A stretch of 64,000 nt of DNA from Patescibacteria group bacterium. GTDB lineage: Bacteria; Patescibacteriota; Microgenomatia; UBA8517. Both the position numbers and the translations under genes were made by a program. This document shows, piece after piece, positions 7,845-27,322 of this stretch. Where the stretch lies: NCBI GenBank assembly GCA_018823885.1, contig JAHJHG010000009.1, positions 151,751-215,750 of the forward strand, given 5' to 3'. Numbering within the stretch: position 1 is the stretch's first letter; each line of letters starts with the position of its first letter. Under the pieces are notes generated by a model that worked only from the letters and a program-made list of their open reading frames with translations, was not told where the DNA came from and searched no databases.

Positions 7845-9203
7845 TCATGAAACCTTTTGTTTAAGGTGGGCCAATAAAGCTTTTTTCTTGTTTGGAATTT
7901 TCTTTTCTTCAACTTCTTCAAAAAGTTGTTCTAATATTTCTCCTACTTTTGGTCCAGGTTTTAAGTTTAATTCCTTCATGACATCATTTCCTGATATTTT
8001 TAGATCATGAATGGTGAATGGTTGTTTTTGAACTTCAATTATTCTTTTTTTGAATTCTTCTAATCTCCACGAGGTTTCTCTGGCTCCACCACCCAGTCTG
8101 TCTCCTACTCTTAAATCAATCATGTCTTTAATGTTTTCTTTACCTACATTTTTAATAAATCTTCTTATTGCTTTGTCCGTTTGTTTTTCATCAACAGTGA
8201 ATTGATGCCACTGAACAAGAGTGATTAGCTTTTCTGATTGTTTTTTTGATAATTTCAATCTTTCAGCTATTCTTTTGGCAATCCTGGTACTGACAACCTC
8301 ATGGTTATAGAAAGTAATTGTTCCATTTTCTAGTTTTCTGTATGTTTGCGGCTTGCCAATATCATGAATTAAAGTAGCGAACCTAACGATAGGGTCAGTG
8401 CTTTTACAATGTTTTAGAGAAAGGAAACTATGCGTACCAACGTCATGAACGTGGTGTCTGCCCGGTGATTTTTGTTCTACGCCAAAAGTTTTTTCAAGTT
8501 CAGGAAGAATTTCTTCCAACAATCCAACTTCTCTAAAGATAATCATGCCTTCATATGGATTAGTAGAGGCAAGAATTTTAATTAATTCATCTTTTGCTCT
8601 TTCTTTGGCTATCTTGTTAATGAGTGGGGCATTTGTTTTTATTGCTTCGAGTGTTTCCTTTTCAATTTTAAAATTAAGTTCTGTGGCAATTCTCACTGCC
8701 CTCATCATACGCAGGGCATCTTCCGAGAATCTTTCTGAAGCTTCTCCCACGGCTCTAATGAGTTTCTTTTCTAGGTCTTTTTGACCATCGTAGGGATCAA
8801 TAAGTTCATACTCATCTTTCTTGCCCTTTTTTCTTTTAAGAGCCATGGCATTGATGGTGAAATCACGTCTTTTAAGGTCTTCTTCTAGTGTTTTTCCCCA
8901 AACGACCTTGTCTGGACGACGCTTGTCTGTATAGCCTGATTCGTGCCTAAAAGTGGTTATTTCATACGGATGGGGCGATGATTCATGACTAATACCGACA
9001 GTACCGAAGGTATTGTCATAGAAACCGTCTGGAAAAATCTTAAGAATCTCTTTTGGAGTAGCGTTGGTGGTGAAATCCCAGTCTTCAGCGCTCTTTTTCG
9101 TCAATAAATCACGCACGGCTCCTCCTACAAGATATATTTCAAATTCTGCTTTCTCGAATTTTTTTAGAATTTCTAATACGAATTTTGGTAGCTGGACATC
9201 CAC
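7845..9203 (-). CDS. cca: CCA-adding tRNA nucleotidyltransferase with HD domain
   Basis: LVGGAVRDLL, a DxD nucleotidyltransferase core, RRDFTINAMA and a C-terminal HD domain (HDIGK). The ORF track extends to 9476, but that 90-aa hydrophobic extension overlaps recJ on the other strand. An in-frame GTG at 9203, 9 nt after a TATAAT box, is the more likely start. Confidence 0.7.
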   Translation of the reverse strand: MDVQLPKFVLEILKKFEKAEFEIYLVGGAVRDLLTKKSAEDWDFTTNATPKEILKIFPDGFYDNTFGTVGISHESSPHPYEITTFRHESGYTDKRRPDKVVWGKTLEEDLKRRDFTINAMALKRKKGKKDEYELIDPYDGQKDLEKKLIRAVGEASERFSEDALRMMRAVRIATELNFKIEKETLEAIKTNAPLINKIAKERAKDELIKILASTNPYEGMIIFREVGLLEEILPELEKTFGVEQKSPGRHHVHDVGTHSFLSLKHCKSTDPIVRFATLIHDIGKPQTYRKLENGTITFYNHEVVSTRIAKRIAERLKLSKKQSEKLITLVQWHQFTVDEKQTDKAIRRFIKNVGKENIKDMIDLRVGDRLGGGARETSWRLEEFKKRIIEVQKQPFTIHDLKISGNDVMKELNLKPGPKVGEILEQLFEEVEEKKIPNKKKALLAHLKQKVS

Positions 9204-9237: not shown

Positions 9238-10920
9238 ATGAATACCCAAACTAAAAAATGGGAGGTATTAAACAAATTACCTAAGGGTAAAAAGAAAATT
9301 ACCAGTAATGATATTATTAACACTCTTCTTAAGAGTCGAGGGATAACAACCCCCGAAAAAAGAAAAGAATTCTTCAATCCGGTCCTGCCTGAAAAAATTA
9401 CCTTACGCACCTTGGGACTCAGCAAGGTGGCTGTTGAAAAGGGGATAGCGAGGATAAAGAAGGCCAAAAAGAACAAAGAAAAGATTATTGTCTATGGAGA
9501 TTATGATGCTGATGGCATAACCGGTACAGCTATTCTCTGGGAAACTCTTTTTGCCTTTGATAAAGAAACACTTCCATATATCCCTGACCGGTTTACTGAA
9601 GGATATGGTTTAAATCCCAAAACTATTATTAAGTTAAAAGAGGAATATCCCAATTTAGGATTAATAATCAGTGTTGATAATGGTATTGTGGCCAATAAAG
9701 CGGTCACTAAGGCCAATAAGCTAGGAATGGATGTCATTATTACCGACCATCACAAAAAAGCAAAAACAATTCCTAAAGCACTAGCCATCATTCACACAAC
9801 TGAGATCGGTGGAGCGGCCGTTGCCTGGGTTTTTGCCAGAGAGATTAGGAAAAAACTTCGAATGCCGAAATCTGAGTTTAAAATGGGAGACGGATTGGAT
9901 TTGGCCGCGATAGGAACAATTGCCGATCAAATTTCTTTACTAGGCTCAAATCGTTCTTTTGTGAAATATGGCTTGAGAGCTTTAAACAAAACTATTCGAC
10001 CCGGATTACTTTCTCTTTTTAAAGAAGCAGCTATTAAGAGAGGAGCGATTGGTACTTATACGGTTGGTTTTATTGTTGCCCCAAGAATTAATGCTATGGG
10101 TAGACTTGAACATGCGATGGATGCTTTAAGACTTCTTTGCACAAAAAAAAGAGTTCAAGCAGAAGAGTTTGCTCATTTTTTGGGAAAAACTAACAACGAA
10201 AGACGAAAAATAGTTGATGAAGTAACTATTCATGCAACCGAGGCCGTTAAGGAGACAATGGAAACATCAATCCTTGTTGTTCATGAAAGTTATCATGAGG
10301 GTGTCATTGGGCTTGTTGCTTCCCGTTTAGTGGAAACATTTTACAAACCAACCATTGTCATTTCTCGAGGAAAAGAAATTTCTAAGGCTTCTGCCCGTTC
10401 AATTCCGGGATTTAATATCATTGATGCGATTAGAAACCTGGATAAATTAACCATTGAGGCGGGAGGTCACCCAATGGCGGCTGGGTTTAGTATCAAGACA
10501 AGCAATATAGATAAATTTACTAAGGAATTTGAGAAAGAAACAAAACTTGCGTTAAACGGGGAACTATTAACAAAAAAATTAAAAGTGGACATGGAATTGG
10601 GTTTTGATTTGTTGAGTAAAGAATTAGCGGAGATAATTTCAACTTTTGAACCAACCGGAACAGGGAATTATGCTCCGGTTTTTGCGACCAAAGGAGCAAC
10701 GGTTATTGAAGCAAGGGTTGTCGGCAAAACAGGTACACATCTAAAGTTAAAGTTGCAAGAAAACGACAAGATACTTGATACGATTGCTTTTGGCTTTGGC
10801 CACTTGTCTCCTAAACTTTCTTTGGGAAGCCTTGTTGATGTTGCTTATAATCTAGAAGAAAATGAGTGGAACGGTAGGAAGAGTTTGCAGCTCAATGCAA
10901 GGGATATAAGAATAAAATGA
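9238..10920 (+). CDS. recJ: Single-stranded-DNA-specific exonuclease RecJ
   Basis: DHH family motifs (IVYGDYDADGITG, ITDHH), DHHA1 and a C-terminal OB-like region. ATG at 9238 is preceded by AGGAGAA. The ORF track begins earlier, at 9064. Confidence 0.85.
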   Translation: MNTQTKKWEVLNKLPKGKKKITSNDIINTLLKSRGITTPEKRKEFFNPVLPEKITLRTLGLSKVAVEKGIARIKKAKKNKEKIIVYGDYDADGITGTAILWETLFAFDKETLPYIPDRFTEGYGLNPKTIIKLKEEYPNLGLIISVDNGIVANKAVTKANKLGMDVIITDHHKKAKTIPKALAIIHTTEIGGAAVAWVFAREIRKKLRMPKSEFKMGDGLDLAAIGTIADQISLLGSNRSFVKYGLRALNKTIRPGLLSLFKEAAIKRGAIGTYTVGFIVAPRINAMGRLEHAMDALRLLCTKKRVQAEEFAHFLGKTNNERRKIVDEVTIHATEAVKETMETSILVVHESYHEGVIGLVASRLVETFYKPTIVISRGKEISKASARSIPGFNIIDAIRNLDKLTIEAGGHPMAAGFSIKTSNIDKFTKEFEKETKLALNGELLTKKLKVDMELGFDLLSKELAEIISTFEPTGTGNYAPVFATKGATVIEARVVGKTGTHLKLKLQENDKILDTIAFGFGHLSPKLSLGSLVDVAYNLEENEWNGRKSLQLNARDIRIK

Positions 10921-12467
10921 ACAGGAAATTAGAAAAAGAATTTCAAGATTTAATAAAAGTTGTTAAAGAGCATGATGAAAAAGCGAATATCGAAAAAATT
11001 AAATTTGCCTGGGAATTTGCCAAGATTGCCCATACGGATCAGAAAAGATTAAGCGGGGAGCCATTTGTAAATCATCCCTTGCAAACTGCCAAAATATTGG
11101 CTGAATGGAGACTCGATTCAACCTCAATTATCGCTGCCCTCCTTCATGACACGATTGAGGATGGGGGAGCCGTCAGAGCAGACATTGTCAAAGAATTTGG
11201 GGAAGAGGTTGCTTTATTGGTAGACGGAGTGACCAAAGTGACTGCTCTTCGTTTGAAGGGGAGTAAGGAGGAAGTGTATACCGAAAACTTAAGGAAACTA
11301 CTGTTGGTGATGGCAAAAGACCTGAGGGTTGTCTTAGTGAAGCTCGCCGATAGGTTCCACAACATGCGGACATTATCAGCTCTTCCTGCAAACAAACAAA
11401 ACGAAAATGCGATAGAAACGTTAGAAATTTACGCACCACTGGCCGAGAGAGTGGGGGTAGGAGAAGTCAAAGGACAACTTGAAGATTTAGCTTTTCCCTT
11501 TGCCTATCCTAAAGAATTTAAGAAGACGATAGAAACCTCAAAGACTCATTATAAGGAAGTGGAGAGTTATATAGGGAAGATGAGAAGAGTCTTGTTGAGG
11601 AAGTTGACCAAAGAAGGCATTAAGGCAAAAATTCACGGTAGGAAGAAACACCTCTACTCATTGTGGAAAAAACTTAATCGTCCAGAGATTAATTGGGACT
11701 TCGATAAAATACATGACGTTGTGGCCATGAGGATTATTGTCAACAGAATTCCTCAATGTTATACGGCCTTGGGGGTTGTCCATGGTACATACAGACCTGT
11801 TCCCAATATTGGGGTTTCGGATTTCATTGCCCAACCAAAACCAAGCGGTTATCGATCAATTCACACAAAAGTGTTTGGTCCGGGAAGAAGAATTGTTGAA
11901 ATTCAAATTAGGACAAACAAAATGCATGAGCAAGCCGAGTTTGGCATTGCTGCCCACTGGGCATACGGAGAAGCGAAGAGTAGAGGAGTGAAAGATGTGA
12001 TATTGGAAGCGATGGGGGTAAGAACAGATGAAAACAAACTTCTTTGGGTTAAGCAACTGATTAATTGGCAGAAAGAAATTACGGACTCGAAAGAATTTTT
12101 AGAGGCAGTTAAATTTGATGCATTTCATCATCGGAATTTTATTTTCTCTCCCATGGGGGATGTTTATGATCTTCCTGATGGTTCCACGCCTGTTGATTTT
12201 GCCTACGCAATCCATTCTGATTTGGGTAGTTACACTAAAGGTGCCAGAGCGGATGGTAAGATGGTCCCGCTTGATTACAAACTAAAAAGCGGACAGGTGG
12301 TTGAAATACTAAAATCAAAAACTCCGAATGTGAATGCAGATTGGCTAGGTTTTGCAGTAACTACAGTAGCTAGACGAGAAATAAAAAAGTTTATTCAAGG
12401 CAAGACGGAGGCTCCAAAGGTTGACGATAATAATAGGCATTTGAGCAACAAGGGTAAAAAAAGGTAG
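10917..12467 (+). CDS. rel: RelA/SpoT-family (p)ppGpp synthetase/hydrolase (short form: HD, synthetase, TGS)
   Basis: HD motif LHDTIEDG. Synthetase region with YRSIHT. TGS-like VYDLPDGSTPVDFAYAIHSDLG. 516 aa. Confidence 0.85.
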   Translation: MNRKLEKEFQDLIKVVKEHDEKANIEKIKFAWEFAKIAHTDQKRLSGEPFVNHPLQTAKILAEWRLDSTSIIAALLHDTIEDGGAVRADIVKEFGEEVALLVDGVTKVTALRLKGSKEEVYTENLRKLLLVMAKDLRVVLVKLADRFHNMRTLSALPANKQNENAIETLEIYAPLAERVGVGEVKGQLEDLAFPFAYPKEFKKTIETSKTHYKEVESYIGKMRRVLLRKLTKEGIKAKIHGRKKHLYSLWKKLNRPEINWDFDKIHDVVAMRIIVNRIPQCYTALGVVHGTYRPVPNIGVSDFIAQPKPSGYRSIHTKVFGPGRRIVEIQIRTNKMHEQAEFGIAAHWAYGEAKSRGVKDVILEAMGVRTDENKLLWVKQLINWQKEITDSKEFLEAVKFDAFHHRNFIFSPMGDVYDLPDGSTPVDFAYAIHSDLGSYTKGARADGKMVPLDYKLKSGQVVEILKSKTPNVNADWLGFAVTTVARREIKKFIQGKTEAPKVDDNNRHLSNKGKKR

Positions 12468-18190: not shown

Positions 18191-18513
18191 GTAAAGTATA
18201 TTACGATCATTTAATTGTTCTTGATGATATCGAGAACAAAATTAAAGATATTGCCGAGACACGAGAAGAAAGAGAAGAACTTTGGCAATTAGTTGATGAC
18301 ATTATTCACCGCCGAGTATTGGCTTGTGTATTAGACAATCTTCCTAAGGGCAATCATGAAGAGTTTCTGGGAATGTTCCACGAAGCTCCGCATAGCTTAA
18401 GCTTGATGGATTACTTAAAAGAAAGAATTAAAGATAATATTGAAGAGTTAATTAAACAAGAAATTGGTGGTTTAGCCACGGAACTTCTAGAGGAACTTCA
18501 AGCAAAAGAGTAG
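18187..18513 (+). CDS. Hypothetical acidic small protein
   Basis: 108-aa ORF overlapping the upstream gene's stop (ATGA junction). No recognised motif. Confidence 0.4.
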   Translation: MSKVYYDHLIVLDDIENKIKDIAETREEREELWQLVDDIIHRRVLACVLDNLPKGNHEEFLGMFHEAPHSLSLMDYLKERIKDNIEELIKQEIGGLATELLEELQAKE

Positions 18514-18519
18514 TTGTTT

Positions 18520-18800
18520 TTCGAAGGTGGTACTGGGGACTGGCTAGGAATTGGTAAAGTTGTTGTGATGTTGATGCTGGTATCGGTCTCACTTGGATAG
18601 GTCTAGTCGCCGTTGATTGTTTGGAGCAAGGAGGTAGGATTTTTTATTAAACAGCATATGCTGTCCCTCCTCCTGCGCTTTGTTCGGCGATCCACCCACA
18701 CCCTTTACTTGATATTCAATTGTAGGAAACTTTAGACGCCCAAATCGTCATGTCTCCTGCTTTCTCTACAGATAAGCCAGTCCCCACCGGCTGTCAAGCT
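18520..18800. ncRNA. Candidate structured RNA of unknown class in a 375-bp intergenic region
   Basis: An 11-bp long-range complement joins 18534-18544 (TGGGGACTGGC) and 18777-18787 (GCCAGTCCCCA). There is an internal perfect palindrome ACAGCATATGCTGT, a GGAGG/CCTCC flanking stem, and a further hairpin GGCTG..CGAAC/GTTCG.CAGCC at 18790-18832. Strand and class are undetermined. Confidence 0.2.
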
Positions 18801-18889
18801 TCGAACGAATAAGCAATAATGGTTCGTCAGCCTGACTTCTAACTCATAATACCACAGCTAATATATTTTTCACAAGTAGTTGATATACT

Positions 18890-19201
18890 TTGAACATGGA
18901 GAGAAATTTTGGGGGAGTAGTTTGGACAAATCATGCCTTGAAAAGATTAACAGAAAGAAATATTTCTCAGGGTGATGCTTGGGCAGCCTTCAGGCGTCCA
19001 GAGCAATCAGAGTATGCGAAAGCAAAAGGTGCCTGGATATATTACAAAACCTATGGGAATCAAAGAATTGAAGTTGTTGCCAAGCAAAATGAAAAAAAAG
19101 AATGGATAATTCTTTCTGTTTGGTCAAGGCAAGTTTTCAAAAAAACAAAAAAAATGGATTCTCTTGCAAAACTGCTTTGGAAGAGAATTTTTAAGAAATA
19201 G
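18890..19201 (+). CDS. DUF4258-like small protein (putative BECR-fold toxin-like RNase domain)
   Basis: WTNHALKRLTERNIS matches the DUF4258 signature (TxHAxxRMxERxI). 103 aa. No adjacent partner gene recognised. Confidence 0.5.
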   Translation: MNMERNFGGVVWTNHALKRLTERNISQGDAWAAFRRPEQSEYAKAKGAWIYYKTYGNQRIEVVAKQNEKKEWIILSVWSRQVFKKTKKMDSLAKLLWKRIFKK

Positions 19202-19231: not shown

Positions 19232-19302
19232 TGCGGGATGGTGTAATGGTAGCACGCTGCTCTCTGGAAGCAGAGATTGGGGTTCGAGTCCCTGTCCCGC
19301 AG
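19232..19302 (+). tRNA. tRNA-Gln (anticodon CUG)
   Basis: Manual cloverleaf: acceptor TGCGGGA/TCCCGCA with U1:A72 (typical of bacterial tRNA-Gln). D-stem GTGT/GCAC. Anticodon stem CTGCT/AGCAG with loop CTCTGGA. T-arm TGGGG-TTCGAGT-CCCTG. Discriminator G. CCA not encoded. Confidence 0.85.
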
Positions 19303-19408
19303 CTAGTTTGGGCACCCTATTGACCCATATGCCTCGAAAAGCCCATGTTTCTCTTCAAAACTATCGATCATACTCCCAAACATTCGTACCACACCCTCAG
19401 CTTCCGGA
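19300..19408. repeat. Copy B of the ~108-bp direct repeat family, immediately 3' of tRNA-Gln
   Basis: TTGGGCACCCTATTGACCCATATG...CCAAACATTCGTACCACACCCTCAGCTTCCGGA. Its ends align with copies A and C. Confidence 0.55.
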
Positions 19409-22159: not shown

Positions 22160-22267
22160 AGCTCATAAGTATACCATAGAACCACAAGCAAAACAAGTAC
22201 TGTTACCATGACCTCTCTTTTAGCCTCAACTGTGGTACACTCAGAGTAATTGGTTATGGGCTCGAAA

Positions 22268-22350
22268 GGTTCTAGACCGACATGCTCAATTATCTCGGAA
22301 TCAGAACCCCAGGCACGACATCCAGTTATGGGACTGGAAGGGTCTAGACC
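22268..22350. promoter_or_regulatory. Pair of palindromic operator-like sites (GGTTCTAGACC at 22268-22278 and a perfect GGTCTAGACC at 22341-22350), each followed by a (C/G)ATGCTCA-like half-box
   Basis: 10-bp perfect palindrome. The extended motif R-G-K-TCTAGACC-N3-RKGCTCA recurs at 23808-23818 and 23855-23864. Confidence 0.3.
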
Positions 22351-22438
22351 AGAGAGCTCAGCAAAGATTTTTAGTCTCTGTTTTACGGTAAAAGTCAAAA
22401 AATATATTTTCAATATTTGCTATAATTAACATAACAGT

Positions 22439-22831
22439 ATGCAAAGTGAATGGTATCAGCAACTAATTAGACCATCATGGTCACCGCCTTCTTGGCTTTT
22501 TGGCCCAGTTTGGACTTTTCTATATCTATTAATTGTTGTTTCCTTTTTTAAAGTATTTCAATTAACTTTTCAAAAAAGAATCTCATTTATTATCGCTCTC
22601 CCGTTTATTCTTAATCTCATTTTTAACTTCGCATTTACTCCTTTACAATTTGGGTTAAGAAGCAATATCCTGGCGGCCATTGACATTCTTCTTGTCCTGA
22701 TCACTCTTGTCTGGGCGATGAAGGCAATCTATCCTCATGCAAAATGGATTACTTATATCCAAATCCCATATTTGTTGTGGGTTAGTTTTGCGACTGTTTT
22801 GCAGTTAGTCATTACTTATTTAAACCGTTAA
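22439..22831 (+). CDS. tspO: TspO/MBR-family tryptophan-rich membrane protein (short)
   Basis: WYQQLIRPSWSPPSWLFGPVWTFLY matches the TspO N-terminal signature (W..L.KP.W.PP..F.PVW..LY). Four predicted TM helices. 130 aa is short for the family. Confidence 0.55.
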   Translation: MQSEWYQQLIRPSWSPPSWLFGPVWTFLYLLIVVSFFKVFQLTFQKRISFIIALPFILNLIFNFAFTPLQFGLRSNILAAIDILLVLITLVWAMKAIYPHAKWITYIQIPYLLWVSFATVLQLVITYLNR

Positions 22832-25218: not shown

Positions 25219-25710
25219 ATGACAATAAGAGTGCTTTGGCCGACCCGCTCAGCCAATCTTCCCAAAGATGACAACATCTTTGCTATAATTTTCATCATGC
25301 AAAAACTTCTTGCTTCAGACAAGGTATATATTAGTAAATCAGGAATTCTTGATGCCGGTAGGGGAGTTTATGCAAGACGTGATATTAAGAAAGGTGAAAT
25401 GATTGAAAGGTGTCCAATTATTGAAGTTTCCAAAAATGATACATCCAATCTGAAAGAAAGCGTTCTTGTAACTTATTTCTTCTATTTTGGCAAAAACAAG
25501 GAACGGTTAGCGATAGTTTTAGGTTTTGGATCAATATATAACCATTCATACAAACCTAACGCAACTTATAAAATGAAATCTCGAGAAAAGACAATTGATT
25601 TTATTGCCATAGACGATATCAAGAAAGATGATGAGATTACATTTAATTATTCCAATTGCAGCAACCCAAAAGGTAAGGAAAACCCATTGTGGTTTGAAGT
25701 AAATAAATAG
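25219..25710 (+). CDS. SET-domain protein (putative protein-lysine methyltransferase)
   Basis: GRGVYARRDIKKGEMI, then the NHSCxPN-type motif YNHSYKPNA, then the ELxFDY-type motif EITFNY. 163 aa. Confidence 0.7.
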   Translation: MTIRVLWPTRSANLPKDDNIFAIIFIMQKLLASDKVYISKSGILDAGRGVYARRDIKKGEMIERCPIIEVSKNDTSNLKESVLVTYFFYFGKNKERLAIVLGFGSIYNHSYKPNATYKMKSREKTIDFIAIDDIKKDDEITFNYSNCSNPKGKENPLWFEVNK

Positions 25711-25715
25711 TTTGT

Positions 25716-25973
25716 TTGCTAAAATGTATTGTGTTTACTGTATATATCTTAAGAACCGATAAGAACACTCTTTATACGGGGCAAACCAAAGACCTTGTGG
25801 CTCGCCTAGGAAAACATACATTAGGAAAGGGAGCAAAATACGTAAGAGGATTTAAATCTTTTGAGTTGGTTTACACAGAAAAATTTAAAACTCGTTCAGA
25901 AGCCTTAAAGCGAGAGCATGAGTTAAAGAAATTATCAAAACAAGAAAAAGAAAATCTAATAGCTGCCCTATAG
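25716..25973 (+). CDS. GIY-YIG nuclease superfamily protein (YhbQ/UPF0213-like), paralog of 4122-4424
   Basis: VYILRTDKNTLYTGQTKDLVARLGKH and the C-terminal RSEALKREHELK. Begins 5 nt after the SET gene stop. Confidence 0.7.
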   Translation: MLKCIVFTVYILRTDKNTLYTGQTKDLVARLGKHTLGKGAKYVRGFKSFELVYTEKFKTRSEALKREHELKKLSKQEKENLIAAL

Positions 25974-26146
25974 TTTCTTGACAAATGTTTTTAATCTGTT
26001 ACACTGACATCTGTTCCGTTAACTCGGAACCAAAGACTGTTTTTTTAATTTGATTTAAGTCGGTAAGTAAGGGTACCCCAGAAACTACTTTTAACACGTA
26101 TCTTTCCTTCAAACACTTGCATTCCCATTAATATAAGCAGTTTCGT

Positions 26147-27322
26147 TTGAAACTAATGTATAAACAAAGAAATCATTCGCGTTATTCGCGAAGAAGGAAT
26201 TTTGGGCCCAGAAAGGCCAATATTCGTAGCTTTGATCCAAGGACTGTTATTGGGAAAATAACCAGTCCTATTTCTGATGTCTGTGAAATTAAAAACAAAT
26301 TTTCAGACTTTGTTCTTGACGGGCGACTTTCTGGAAATATCGCAGCTCACAGATTTAATGCGCCTACTCCTATCCAAGATCAGGCGATACCTGAAATCTT
26401 ATCCGGTCATGATGTGGTTGGTGTTGCCAACACAGGTACGGGTAAAACAGCTGCTTTTTTAATCCCCCTTATTAATAAAATAGTTCTTAATGGAAGATCT
26501 AGAGTTTTAATCATTACGCCTACACGCGAGTTGGCTGTTCAAATCGAAAAGGAATTACAAGGTTTTTCCAGTGGTATGGGTATATATTCTGCCGTTTGTA
26601 TTGGAGGAGTTTCCATTCATGGGCAAATAAATAAGCTTCGAAGAGGCCCTCATTTTGTGATAGGCACTCCAGGGAGGTTGCTTGATTTAGAAAATCAAAG
26701 GAAGATTAATTTTAATAGCTTTGATTCAATTGTTTTGGACGAAGTAGATAGAATGCTTGATATGGGATTTATCAACGATATGAAAAAAATTATTTTAAAA
26801 CTTCCAAGAAATAGGCAATCACTCTTTTTCTCAGCTACTCTTGATGAGAAAGTAAAGGGCGTAATGAGTCAATTTGTTTCGAATCCGGTCATGATTTCAG
26901 TTAAAGTCGCAGATGCCAGCACAAACGTACGTCAAGATGTCGTTGAATTGAGAGGTAGAAACAAAGCAGACGTTTTATGTGAACTATTAGATACAAAAGA
27001 AGCGTCAAAAACTCTTATATTCATGAGGACTAAAAGAAGTGCGGACAAGCTGCACAGAAGTCTTACAGATGTTGGGTTTCATACAGCGGTTATGCATGGA
27101 AACAAGACTCAAAACCAAAGACAAAGATCTCTTGAGCAATTCCGTCATGGTAGGGTAAGCGCTTTGATTGCGACAGACGTTGCCTCAAGAGGAATAGACG
27201 TCGATGATATTACTCACGTTATCAATTACGATCTTCCGGAAGACTATGATACTTATATTCACAGAATTGGGAGAACAGGTAGAGTAGACAAAAAAGGAAT
27301 CGCTCTAACATTTATAGGCTAA
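26147..27322 (+). CDS. DEAD-box ATP-dependent RNA helicase
   Basis: Q-motif region. Walker A GTGKTAAF. DEVD (motif II). SAT. HRIGRTGR (motif VI). Confidence 0.85.
   Translation: MKLMYKQRNHSRYSRRRNFGPRKANIRSFDPRTVIGKITSPISDVCEIKNKFSDFVLDGRLSGNIAAHRFNAPTPIQDQAIPEILSGHDVVGVANTGTGKTAAFLIPLINKIVLNGRSRVLIITPTRELAVQIEKELQGFSSGMGIYSAVCIGGVSIHGQINKLRRGPHFVIGTPGRLLDLENQRKINFNSFDSIVLDEVDRMLDMGFINDMKKIILKLPRNRQSLFFSATLDEKVKGVMSQFVSNPVMISVKVADASTNVRQDVVELRGRNKADVLCELLDTKEASKTLIFMRTKRSADKLHRSLTDVGFHTAVMHGNKTQNQRQRSLEQFRHGRVSALIATDVASRGIDVDDITHVINYDLPEDYDTYIHRIGRTGRVDKKGIALTFIG

Follow-up and report, generated by a model that had tools for sequence, protein, structure and literature searches.

What occupies the spacer between the gene for a 108-aa protein and the DUF4258 gene at positions 18514-18890 of this 64-kb stretch of DNA (hereafter the window, meaning all 64,000 nucleotides analyzed) from a Woesebacteria/Microgenomates genome of the candidate phyla radiation (CPR)? 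These 377 nt contain no plausible open reading frame (ORF) and are among the window's longest stretches without a convincing one. An initial sequence-only reading had weighed a structured RNA, a leader or antitoxin for the toxin-like DUF4258 gene, and a decayed gene. Our comparisons support a structured non-coding RNA locus rather than spacer. It is well supported that the stretch holds a cassette that is a lineage-restricted structured RNA gene of no described family, with its own sigma-70-type extended -10 promoter (18846-18875). A structured RNA of ~315 nt on the minus strand, spanning ~18526-18839, is likewise well supported, and the evidence that it is functional is good for so few sequences.

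The sequence features that first drew attention to the region are present. The long-range complementarity joins TGGGGACTGGC at 18534-18544 to GCCAGTCCCCA at 18776-18786, one position from where it had been placed (18777-18787), and belongs to a perfect inverted repeat of 12 nt, TGGGGACTGGCT (18534-18545) with AGCCAGTCCCCA (18775-18786). A perfect inverted repeat of at least 12 nt arose in one of 300 dinucleotide-preserving shuffles of the 377 nt, so the repeat exceeds chance. Also confirmed were the perfect 14-nt palindrome ACAGCATATGCTGT at 18651-18664 between GGAGG (18630) and CCTCC (18666, 18669) arms, the bulged hairpin GGCTG..CGAAC/GTTCG..CAGCC at 18789-18832, and the minus-strand frame AEQSAGGGTAYAV with its double stop. 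The statement that most gaps fall under 100 bp was too strong, as many gaps in the window measure 100-290 nt, but the stretch is indeed among the longest ORF-poor ones. The sole longer gap, of 437 nt (25710-26147), is not gene-free because an 85-aa ORF lies inside it (25716-25973, beginning MLKCIVFTVYILRTDKNTLYTGQTKDLVARLGKH), which by eye looks like a putative GIY-YIG (UPF0213-type) nuclease domain. The G+C content of the stretch is 0.47-0.48 versus about 0.29-0.48 in the flanking genes. The identical sequence occurs in GCA_018817485.1, GCA_018815075.1, GCA_018815675.1 and JGI 3300014656, and exact-protein look-ups of window genes returned solely copies that were 100% identical, with no variation.

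Comparison with relatives, cited below by locus number, identified the stretch as a cassette of ~345 bp between the 108-aa gene and the DUF4258 gene. We fetched 80 syntenic loci from GTDB species representatives via the adjacent 321-aa protein, and neither nhmmer nor blastn found a homologue of the 377 nt in any of them. In ~25 related Woesebacteria the distance from the 108-aa gene to DUF4258 is ~0-40 nt, versus 376 nt in the window. The closest species align up to the cassette and resume behind it, L001 up to 18535 and again from 18859, L002 up to 18514 and again from 18893, and the segment from 18535 to ~18881 is precisely missing from L001, L002, L092 and L118. Because these alignments break there and the genes of relatives nearly abut, we interpret the ~345 bp as inserted into a short spacer. 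Its left edge falls at 18534/18535 in alignment with the empty sites L001 and L092. Imperfect direct repeats of ~16-18 nt flank it: the left one, TTTTTCGAAGGTGGTACT (18517-18534), is native spacer right behind the stop codon of the 108-aa gene, as the L001/L092 alignment places it, and the right one, TTTTTCACAAGTAGTT (18866-18881, extent judged by eye), is an imperfect copy that contains the promoter's -35 element. On account of these repeats, the left and right BLAST matches to L001 share 25 nt of its single spacer. A comparable imperfect repeat is present at the other filled sites inspected (L093, L095).

The frame that received the cassette is conserved and consists of the 321-aa gene, the 108-aa gene, DUF4258 and tRNA-Gln. 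The tRNA-Gln(CUG) lies at 19232-19303, directly behind DUF4258, a position kept in L093 and L095. Across Woesebacteria the same junction is a gene-content hotspot, with gaps from 263 to 2018 nt in L003, L004, L010, L011, L016, L017, L019, L026, L031, L034, L041, L042, L049 and L051. The cargo there is mostly on the minus strand and includes a putative hpt (hypoxanthine phosphoribosyltransferase-like, a call read from the translation), a ~65-aa DUF378-like protein with a pair of transmembrane segments, a ~520-aa membrane protein, and other ORFs.

Homologues of the cassette were reached through a search with the 108-aa protein, followed by inspection of the spacer on the contigs found, and bring the total to eight cassettes. 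Filled sites at the same position are L093/L094, L095, L117, L119, L120, L122 (partial) and L123; the same search yielded the empty sites L092 and L118. Among the diverged copies in relatives, four are complete, one is truncated by the end of its contig, and one or two are no more than short fragments. In nhmmer, E-values were 1e-46 to 1e-114 for L093-L095, L117, L119 and L123 and 4e-12 for the L122 fragment. The E-value of L120 was merely 0.01-0.02, and we accepted it as a homologue because both strands of the closing helix P1, described below, are present at the same site. In L123 two cassettes follow one another in tandem, the second with a shorter body (159 nt, fold z = -5.3) and a distinct 14-bp P1 closing helix, GGGGTTGTTGCACA/TGTGCAACAACCCC (as RNA, GGGGUUGUUGCACA/UGUGCAACAACCCC). 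A copy of the last ~15 nt of the 108-aa gene and of the spacer precedes it, so the whole unit was duplicated, flank included. This second cassette, at 1835-2095 of L123, has the same layout of promoter box (TGATACTAT), 5' hairpin and closed domain. In L121, the 108-aa gene is apparently directly adjoined by a cassette of this second type, of which 48 nt precede the end of the contig.

In a neighbor-joining tree of the 108-aa protein, every filled site fell into one clade, sister to L002, with the empty sites L092 and L001+L118 nested inside it. Judged from these sequences, the simplest history would be one gain followed by at least two losses under vertical inheritance. The cassette would have entered the spacer in the ancestor of one small Woesebacteria clade, with sub-types, at least one tandem duplication and at least two losses coming later. 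Two sub-types can be told apart, group 1 (window, L093, L119, L123a) and group 2 (L095, L117, L120), which are merely 56-60% identical even where the neighboring gene is 86-88% identical. The cassette evolves faster than its neighboring genes, and its sub-types do not follow host relationships, a pattern that fits old paralogous cassettes with differential loss, L123 showing the tandem state.

The known distribution is one genus-level Woesebacteria clade and a single fixed locus. No second copy was present in the 64-kb window, nor off-site in ~1.9 Mb of related loci; blastn gave no match in phage and plasmid collections, and two pattern scans of viral contigs gave 0 matches. A metagenome scan with GGGGACTGG-N(232-262)-CCAGTCCCCACC returned 21 matches, all GC-rich, apparently coding and unlike the element. 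Twelve of these matches are near-identical and 274 nt long. Ten of them (L097-L099, L101, L103-L105, L110, L113 and L114) begin with GGTGGGGACTGG, end with CCAGTCCCC and are unrelated to the element, and L109 and L116 form a second pair of the same length. We note that a 21-base gapped pattern still picks up chance matches from abundant organisms.

Conservation and covariation of a fold were both found in relatives, and the features of the window copy are kept in its homologues. The RNA begins with a 5' hairpin, H0, followed by a G/C-rich closing helix, P1, within which lie a hairpin, P2, and a long arm, P3/P4/P5. In the group-1 consensus, P1 closes a junction of P2 and the arm P3-P4-P5 with a side hairpin. 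From a MAFFT alignment of six sequences, RNAalifold drew 67 pairs in 10 helices. Paired cells made up 87.9% versus 81.9 +/- 0.8 in shuffles, and 15 pairs had both sides changed versus 6.9 +/- 1.8 in shuffles, with none of 500 shuffles reaching 15. When partners were slid by 1-3 columns, pairing fell to 33-48%. Indels among homologues are mostly of 1-2 nt, so the region is not protein-coding overall.

Individual helices carry these signals to different degrees (all coordinates on the minus strand). H0 (18793-18836), which is the bulged hairpin noted above, has an outer stem GUCAGGCU/AGCUUGAC and an inner stem CGAAC/GUUCG. The outer stem is kept in six sequences, with one pair alternating among G-C, A-U and G.U and other positions changing to U-A, U.G or C-G (by eye in the alignment). 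The inner stem, read from the alignment, is CGAAC/GUUCG in the window and L093, AGGA/UCCU in L095, UGGA/UCCU in L117 and GUAAU/AUUAC in L119. P1 is the inverted repeat, with its 5' strand GGUGGGGACUGGCU at 18775-18788 and its 3' strand AGCCAGUCCCCA at 18534-18545. Its G-rich core of 9 nt, GGGGACUGG/CCAGUCCCC, is invariant in complete copies of both groups except at pair 9 of L123a, which is G.U. P1 extends to 12-15 bp, and its pair 10 has opposite orientations in the alignment, C-G for group 1 and G-C for group 2.

Inside P1, RNAalifold on the four group-1 sequences placed P2 at 18725-18757 (GGAGAC-AU-GACG ... CGUC ... GUUUCC), its stem near-invariant in that group and its loop variable, and P3 (GUUGUUG/CAACAAC), which is weakened in the window copy. 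The long arm (18603-18690) contains P4, in which UCGCCG at 18685-18690 pairs with CGGCGA at 18607-18612, continued by UGG/CUA with a G.U pair, and P4 encloses P5. A compensatory change marks one P4 pair, which reads C-G in the window but U-A in L093, L119 and L123a. In P5 (18629-18674), the Shine-Dalgarno-like sequence AGGAGGAGGGA pairs with UCCUACCUCCU, and the apical hairpin is the palindrome at 18651-18664. At the P5 tip, the Shine-Dalgarno-like GGAGG and an AUG (18655-18657) are buried in stems. The apical stem covaries, reading ACAGC/GCUGU in the window, AUGAC/GUCAU in L095 and ACAAC/GUUGU in L117, with three pairs showing double changes; L119 instead has, at the apex of P5, a short CGAAG/CUUCG stem capped by a GAAAA loop. 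Between P5 and P4 runs an unpaired A-rich strand, CCAAACAAUCAA (18613-18624), whose motif C(A/C)AAACAAUYRA occurs in all four group-1 sequences and is unpaired in the consensus. This strand is a candidate contact site.

An early guess that the minus strand is the relevant one was borne out by fold asymmetry, G.U pairs and promoter orientation. In the window, fold z-scores were -3.9 to -4.7 on the minus strand versus -1.7 to -2.1 on the plus strand, and the minus sense was the more negative in all eight cassettes (e.g., -2.9 versus +0.6 in L120). The G.U at P1 pair 9 of L123a would be A.C on the other strand, and the same holds for the G.U pairs that close the apical hairpin in most copies. A minus-strand promoter (-35 element, 17-18 nt, TGnTATTAT) was found in all six cassettes that cover the region. 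In the window, a consensus scan placed the -35 element TTGTGA at 18870-18875 and, together with the homologues, the extended -10 element TGG TATTAT at 18846-18854. The -35 hexamer of the homologues is TTGTAA, TTGTCG or TTGAAT, 17-18 nt upstream of TATTAT; TATTAT is invariant in the six, and the upstream TG is present in at least five. Promoter spacing predicts an RNA start near 18839. Downstream on the RNA's strand lies only the antisense of the 108-aa gene.

The -10 box is near-palindromic (TTATAATA, 18846-18852, at the same position in L093, L095, L117, L119 and L123). Read on the plus strand, the box (TATTATAA) gives TATAAT in five of six cassettes, ~44 nt before the DUF4258 start codon. 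Since one box reads TATTAT for the RNA and TATAAT toward DUF4258, the cassette may carry a two-way promoter. Other plus-strand promoter-like sites were weak, and their positions were not conserved.

Known RNA families did not account for the element. Across the whole window, Rfam 15 (4227 models) at gathering score returned two tRNAs only. Relaxed searches, at E <= 10 on 18350-19050 and at E <= 5 on L117, L120, L119 and L094, gave nothing but noise-level matches to eukaryotic families. The proposed covariance-model check thus assigned no transfer-messenger RNA (tmRNA), RNase P, signal recognition particle (SRP), 6S or other family. ARAGORN likewise found two tRNAs and no tmRNA in the window, and no tmRNA in six homologous loci. 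The tmRNA-like appearance that had been remarked on fails on several further counts: no tRNA-like domain was found, P1 is 12 contiguous Watson-Crick pairs whose pair 3 is G-C, not G.U, and no T-arm-like sequence adjoins its 3' strand in the alignment. The tag-like frame AEQSAGGGTAYAV is not conserved, having five codons in L093 and a double stop that is read through in L095, L117 and L120. A tRNA-like ACCA 3' end was also considered and is speculative only, as AGCACC(ACC) is native spacer found in empty sites too and is unconserved in group 2. Comparison with 6S RNA showed a branched consensus fold (P2 plus the long arm), not a simple rod, and the 6S family is further disfavored because the cassette is dispensable in sister genomes. 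In the literature on CPR non-coding RNA with covariation, the matching work concerned a different system.

What might such an RNA do? We propose, tentatively, that it acts where it is made, as an antisense RNA or insulator whose two-way promoter separates the operon from the toxin-like gene, a mechanism that we consider possible but would not call probable. The RNA would be transcribed convergently with the upstream 321-aa/108-aa operon and, because of that convergence, would be fully complementary to operon read-through heading for DUF4258. The cassette would replace the operon coupling of DUF4258 by a back-to-back promoter pair, from which RNA polymerase could fire either toward the RNA or toward DUF4258. 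Antisense pairing would remove read-through, and the elaborate fold would serve mainly stability, partner binding or both. Taken as a whole, an RNA gene with this local mechanism is the best explanation we have, and we give it about an even chance of being correct.

Several points weigh against it. The start and end of the RNA, and its transcription, are predictions, and no intrinsic terminator was found behind P1. Plus-strand -35 elements are weak and not conserved, and the window's own plus-strand box reads cATAAT, which the promoter scan did not call. The structure was derived from the alignment on which it was tested, and from related sequences, which inflates the pairing statistics, and just six to eight sequences were available. 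Groups 1 and 2 could not be aligned convincingly from P1 to P4, so a common fold there is not established, and the host tree comes from a single 108-aa protein without support values. Finally, an antisense or insulator role has no obvious need for an ornate covarying fold or a near-invariant P1 core, and these two features hint at a specific partner.

The buried Shine-Dalgarno-like box raises the question of whether the RNA is instead the mRNA of a small protein, that is, a type I toxin-like or dual-function RNA delivering a micro-ORF of ~18 codons. The ribosome binding site and start would be locked in P5 and the mRNA kept inert via P1, as in hok and aapA1, and the window copy would be frameshifted and decaying. 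AGGAGG stands 8 nt before an AUG in five of seven cassettes, and in the window a micro-ORF of 22 codons, MLFNKKSYLLAPNNQRRLDLSK (18589-18657, minus strand), follows the box. The box is paired in P5, GGAGG with CCUCC (or CUUCU), and the long-range helix P1 closes the molecule. L095, L117 and L120 have an 18-codon ORF, M[LS]FHLK...GAN[TV]T, with shared ends and several synonymous differences, and the cassette's patchy presence and tandem duplication at one intergenic site are typical of type I loci. Against this, the window and L093 have an AUG that is out of frame with that ORF's stop position, and in L119 and L123a the AUG is missing; the ORF is therefore frameshifted or absent in four of seven cassettes though the RNA structure persists. 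No conserved hydrophobic ORF is present, and the micro-ORF peptides MLFHLKFPTSLQNGANTT, MSFHLKISTSPQKGANVT and MLFHLKKPIHHHAGANTT are polar and not membrane-like. An open frame of 18 codons is expected by chance in ~4 of 10 cases, and third-position differences, counted by hand as 10 of 19 between L117 and L120 and 4 of 10 between L117 and L095, are not significantly enriched. The UAR at 18604-18606, seemingly a conserved stop, shares bases with a CUA whose pairing partner is a UAG farther upstream (UGG in the window), and no conserved antisense promoter was found. Translation of the micro-ORF is possible judging by its sequence, but we think it unlikely that a small protein is what the cassette is for. 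Small ORFs on the plus strand (e.g., a TTG-initiated 28-aa hydrophobic peptide at 18514) were set aside, as in the alignment they are not conserved in L093 and L095.

The near-invariant P1 core bears on another alternative, that the RNA binds a protein in trans, either as a decoy or non-essential modulator of DUF4258 (a BECR-fold RNase-like protein) or as a 6S/Ms1-like RNA that binds RNA polymerase. Recognition would then rely on the P1 core and the conserved A-rich internal loop. Consistent with this, the core is near-invariant although identity elsewhere drops to 56-60%, CAAACAAUYRA is a conserved single strand, and the architecture is one of closing stem, large asymmetric central region and long terminal arm. 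DUF4258 is always adjacent, and it is taken up in papers on RelE/ParE (BECR-fold) ribonuclease toxins. However, no partner can be named, and DUF4258 is kept without the RNA in most relatives and at the nested empty sites. The Rfam 6S models give nothing, and a general RNA polymerase regulator would not be dispensable in sister strains. We regard trans binding as improbable on this evidence.

A narrower version, a new structured-RNA class that partners the adjacent BECR-fold DUF4258 RNase-like protein as a non-essential decoy or antitoxin, or as a substrate mimic, appears quite improbable. In several group-1 copies, the closing helix and flank can be drawn as a tRNA-acceptor-like end (GCCGGUG ... 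CACCAGC-ACCA) behind a removable 5' hairpin. If this version were true, the pairing of toxin and RNA would be unlike the known type I and type III systems.

Could the cassette be an insert without function, a remnant of a palindromic mobile element resembling a miniature inverted-repeat transposable element (MITE), with transposase terminal repeats and incidental transcription? It has a perfect 12-nt inverted repeat with a near-invariant core, it is flanked by imperfect direct repeats of ~16-18 nt, and its slot is variable, with different cargo in other species. But the inverted repeat does not lie at the ends of the insertion, which runs ~95 bp past the right repeat arm and includes H0 and the promoter outside it. 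No dispersed copies accompany the single one in the 64 kb or the ~1.9 Mb of related loci; collections of phages, plasmids and viral contigs yielded none either, and the metagenome matches were unrelated and GC-rich. The internal helices covary with strand-specific G.U pairs, the promoter is conserved and inheritance is vertical. A functionless insert is, on balance, a poor fit and quite unlikely.

A plus-strand cis-regulatory leader for DUF4258, or an essential antitoxin RNA for it, as the sequence-only reading had suggested, is very unlikely. The cassette does lie immediately upstream of DUF4258, and the plus strand folds somewhat better than shuffles in seven of eight cassettes (z = -1.0 to -3.8). 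Nevertheless, it is the weaker folder in all eight, its counterparts of the G.U pairs are A.C, and the folded, promoter-driven strand is antisense to DUF4258, with the conserved promoter directed away from it. Most relatives that bear DUF4258 have no such leader. The cassette is not an essential antitoxin because the cassette-free loci L092, L001 and L118 retain DUF4258, at full length in L092 and L001 and cut by the contig end in L118. The region also has no ToxI-type tandem repeat family such as a type III system would bring, and the RNA is on the opposite strand to the gene.

Least credible of all is that a protein-coding gene has decayed here or that a housekeeping RNA (tmRNA, RNase P, SRP, 6S) has been reduced: other Woesebacteria do hold minus-strand genes in the slot (hpt, DUF378-like, the 520-aa membrane protein) and the window has its tag-like frame with a double stop, but tblastn of hpt, the DUF378-like and other slot proteins against the region gave chance matches only, for which reason the pseudogene idea was dropped, the 1-2 nt indels and covarying base pairs do not suit a decayed gene, Rfam and ARAGORN were negative for window and homologues alike, the tag frame is unconserved, and the element is missing at the site in sister genomes, duplicated in tandem in L123 and fast-evolving.

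CPR (Patescibacteria) are ultra-small, uncultured bacteria with tiny genomes, and to our knowledge descriptions of regulatory RNAs from them are very scarce. The cassette is a concrete CPR regulatory-RNA candidate, backed by a conserved promoter, by a fold with compensatory changes, and by sister genomes that lost it and serve as natural 'knock-outs'. Its immediate neighbors are a conserved operon on one side and, on the other, a toxin-like gene of the RelE/ParE superfamily, whose expression it may rewire. Its importance is limited, as the family does not extend beyond one small Woesebacteria clade and what it does is inferred.

Two observations fall outside the cassette. At 22236-22363 of the window, in a 280-nt spacer upstream of the genes at 22439, there are two direct copies of a ~35-nt unit, each holding the palindrome GGTCTAGACC or GGTTCTAGACC. 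About 100 nt of this segment match L002 at 8843-8943, 10458-10556 and 11294-11391, and also L021 and L005. The repeats had no Rfam match; an operator site that occurs in dispersed copies is one possible reading, a motif of a small RNA another. In addition, many assemblies titled 'uncultured Gammaproteobacteria bacterium' (and one titled 'Alphaproteobacteria', one 'Clostridia') share the Woesebacteria-type gene order and encode a protein 50-89% identical to the 321-aa one (e.g., L001, L006, L007, L009, L010). They look like Patescibacteria genome bins filed under wrong taxonomic names.

The cassette resembles several known systems in part. Like tmRNA (SsrA), it joins a G-rich 5' end to a C-rich 3' end by pairing, and a hairpin of the window copy contains or adjoins a short frame closed by a double stop, but it differs from tmRNA in the absence of a T-arm, of G3.U70 and of an in-register encoded CCA, and in its helix of 12 contiguous bp. 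Promoter-bearing MITEs, such as the Correia elements of Neisseria, share with it the inverted repeats, the small insertion into a spacer, the carried promoter and the flanking direct repeats. Unlike them, the cassette is single-copy at one locus, its inverted repeat is internal, its direct repeats of ~16-18 nt are imperfect, and its covariation and G.U asymmetry are signs that selection acts on the RNA. With orphan non-coding RNAs (raiA motif, ROOL, OLE) and with 6S/Ms1 it has in common an own promoter, a covarying multi-helix fold and peripheral hairpins that vary in length, but its distribution is far narrower, it has no Rfam match, and it is not the 6S rod with a central bubble.

The closest analogue in design is the type I toxin mRNA, as in hok/sok of plasmid R1 and aapA1/isoA1 of Helicobacter pylori. 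The cassette departs from these in its polar peptide, in an ORF that is intact in just three of seven cassettes though the structure is kept in all, in having no conserved antisense (antitoxin) promoter that we could find, and in having no sequence or Rfam relationship to them. What it shares with hok and aapA1 is the plan: an own promoter, an RNA of ~300-400 nt, a long-range helix that closes the 5' end on the 3' end, a hairpin that hides the Shine-Dalgarno box and the start codon, and a patchy presence at one intergenic site with tandem paralogues.

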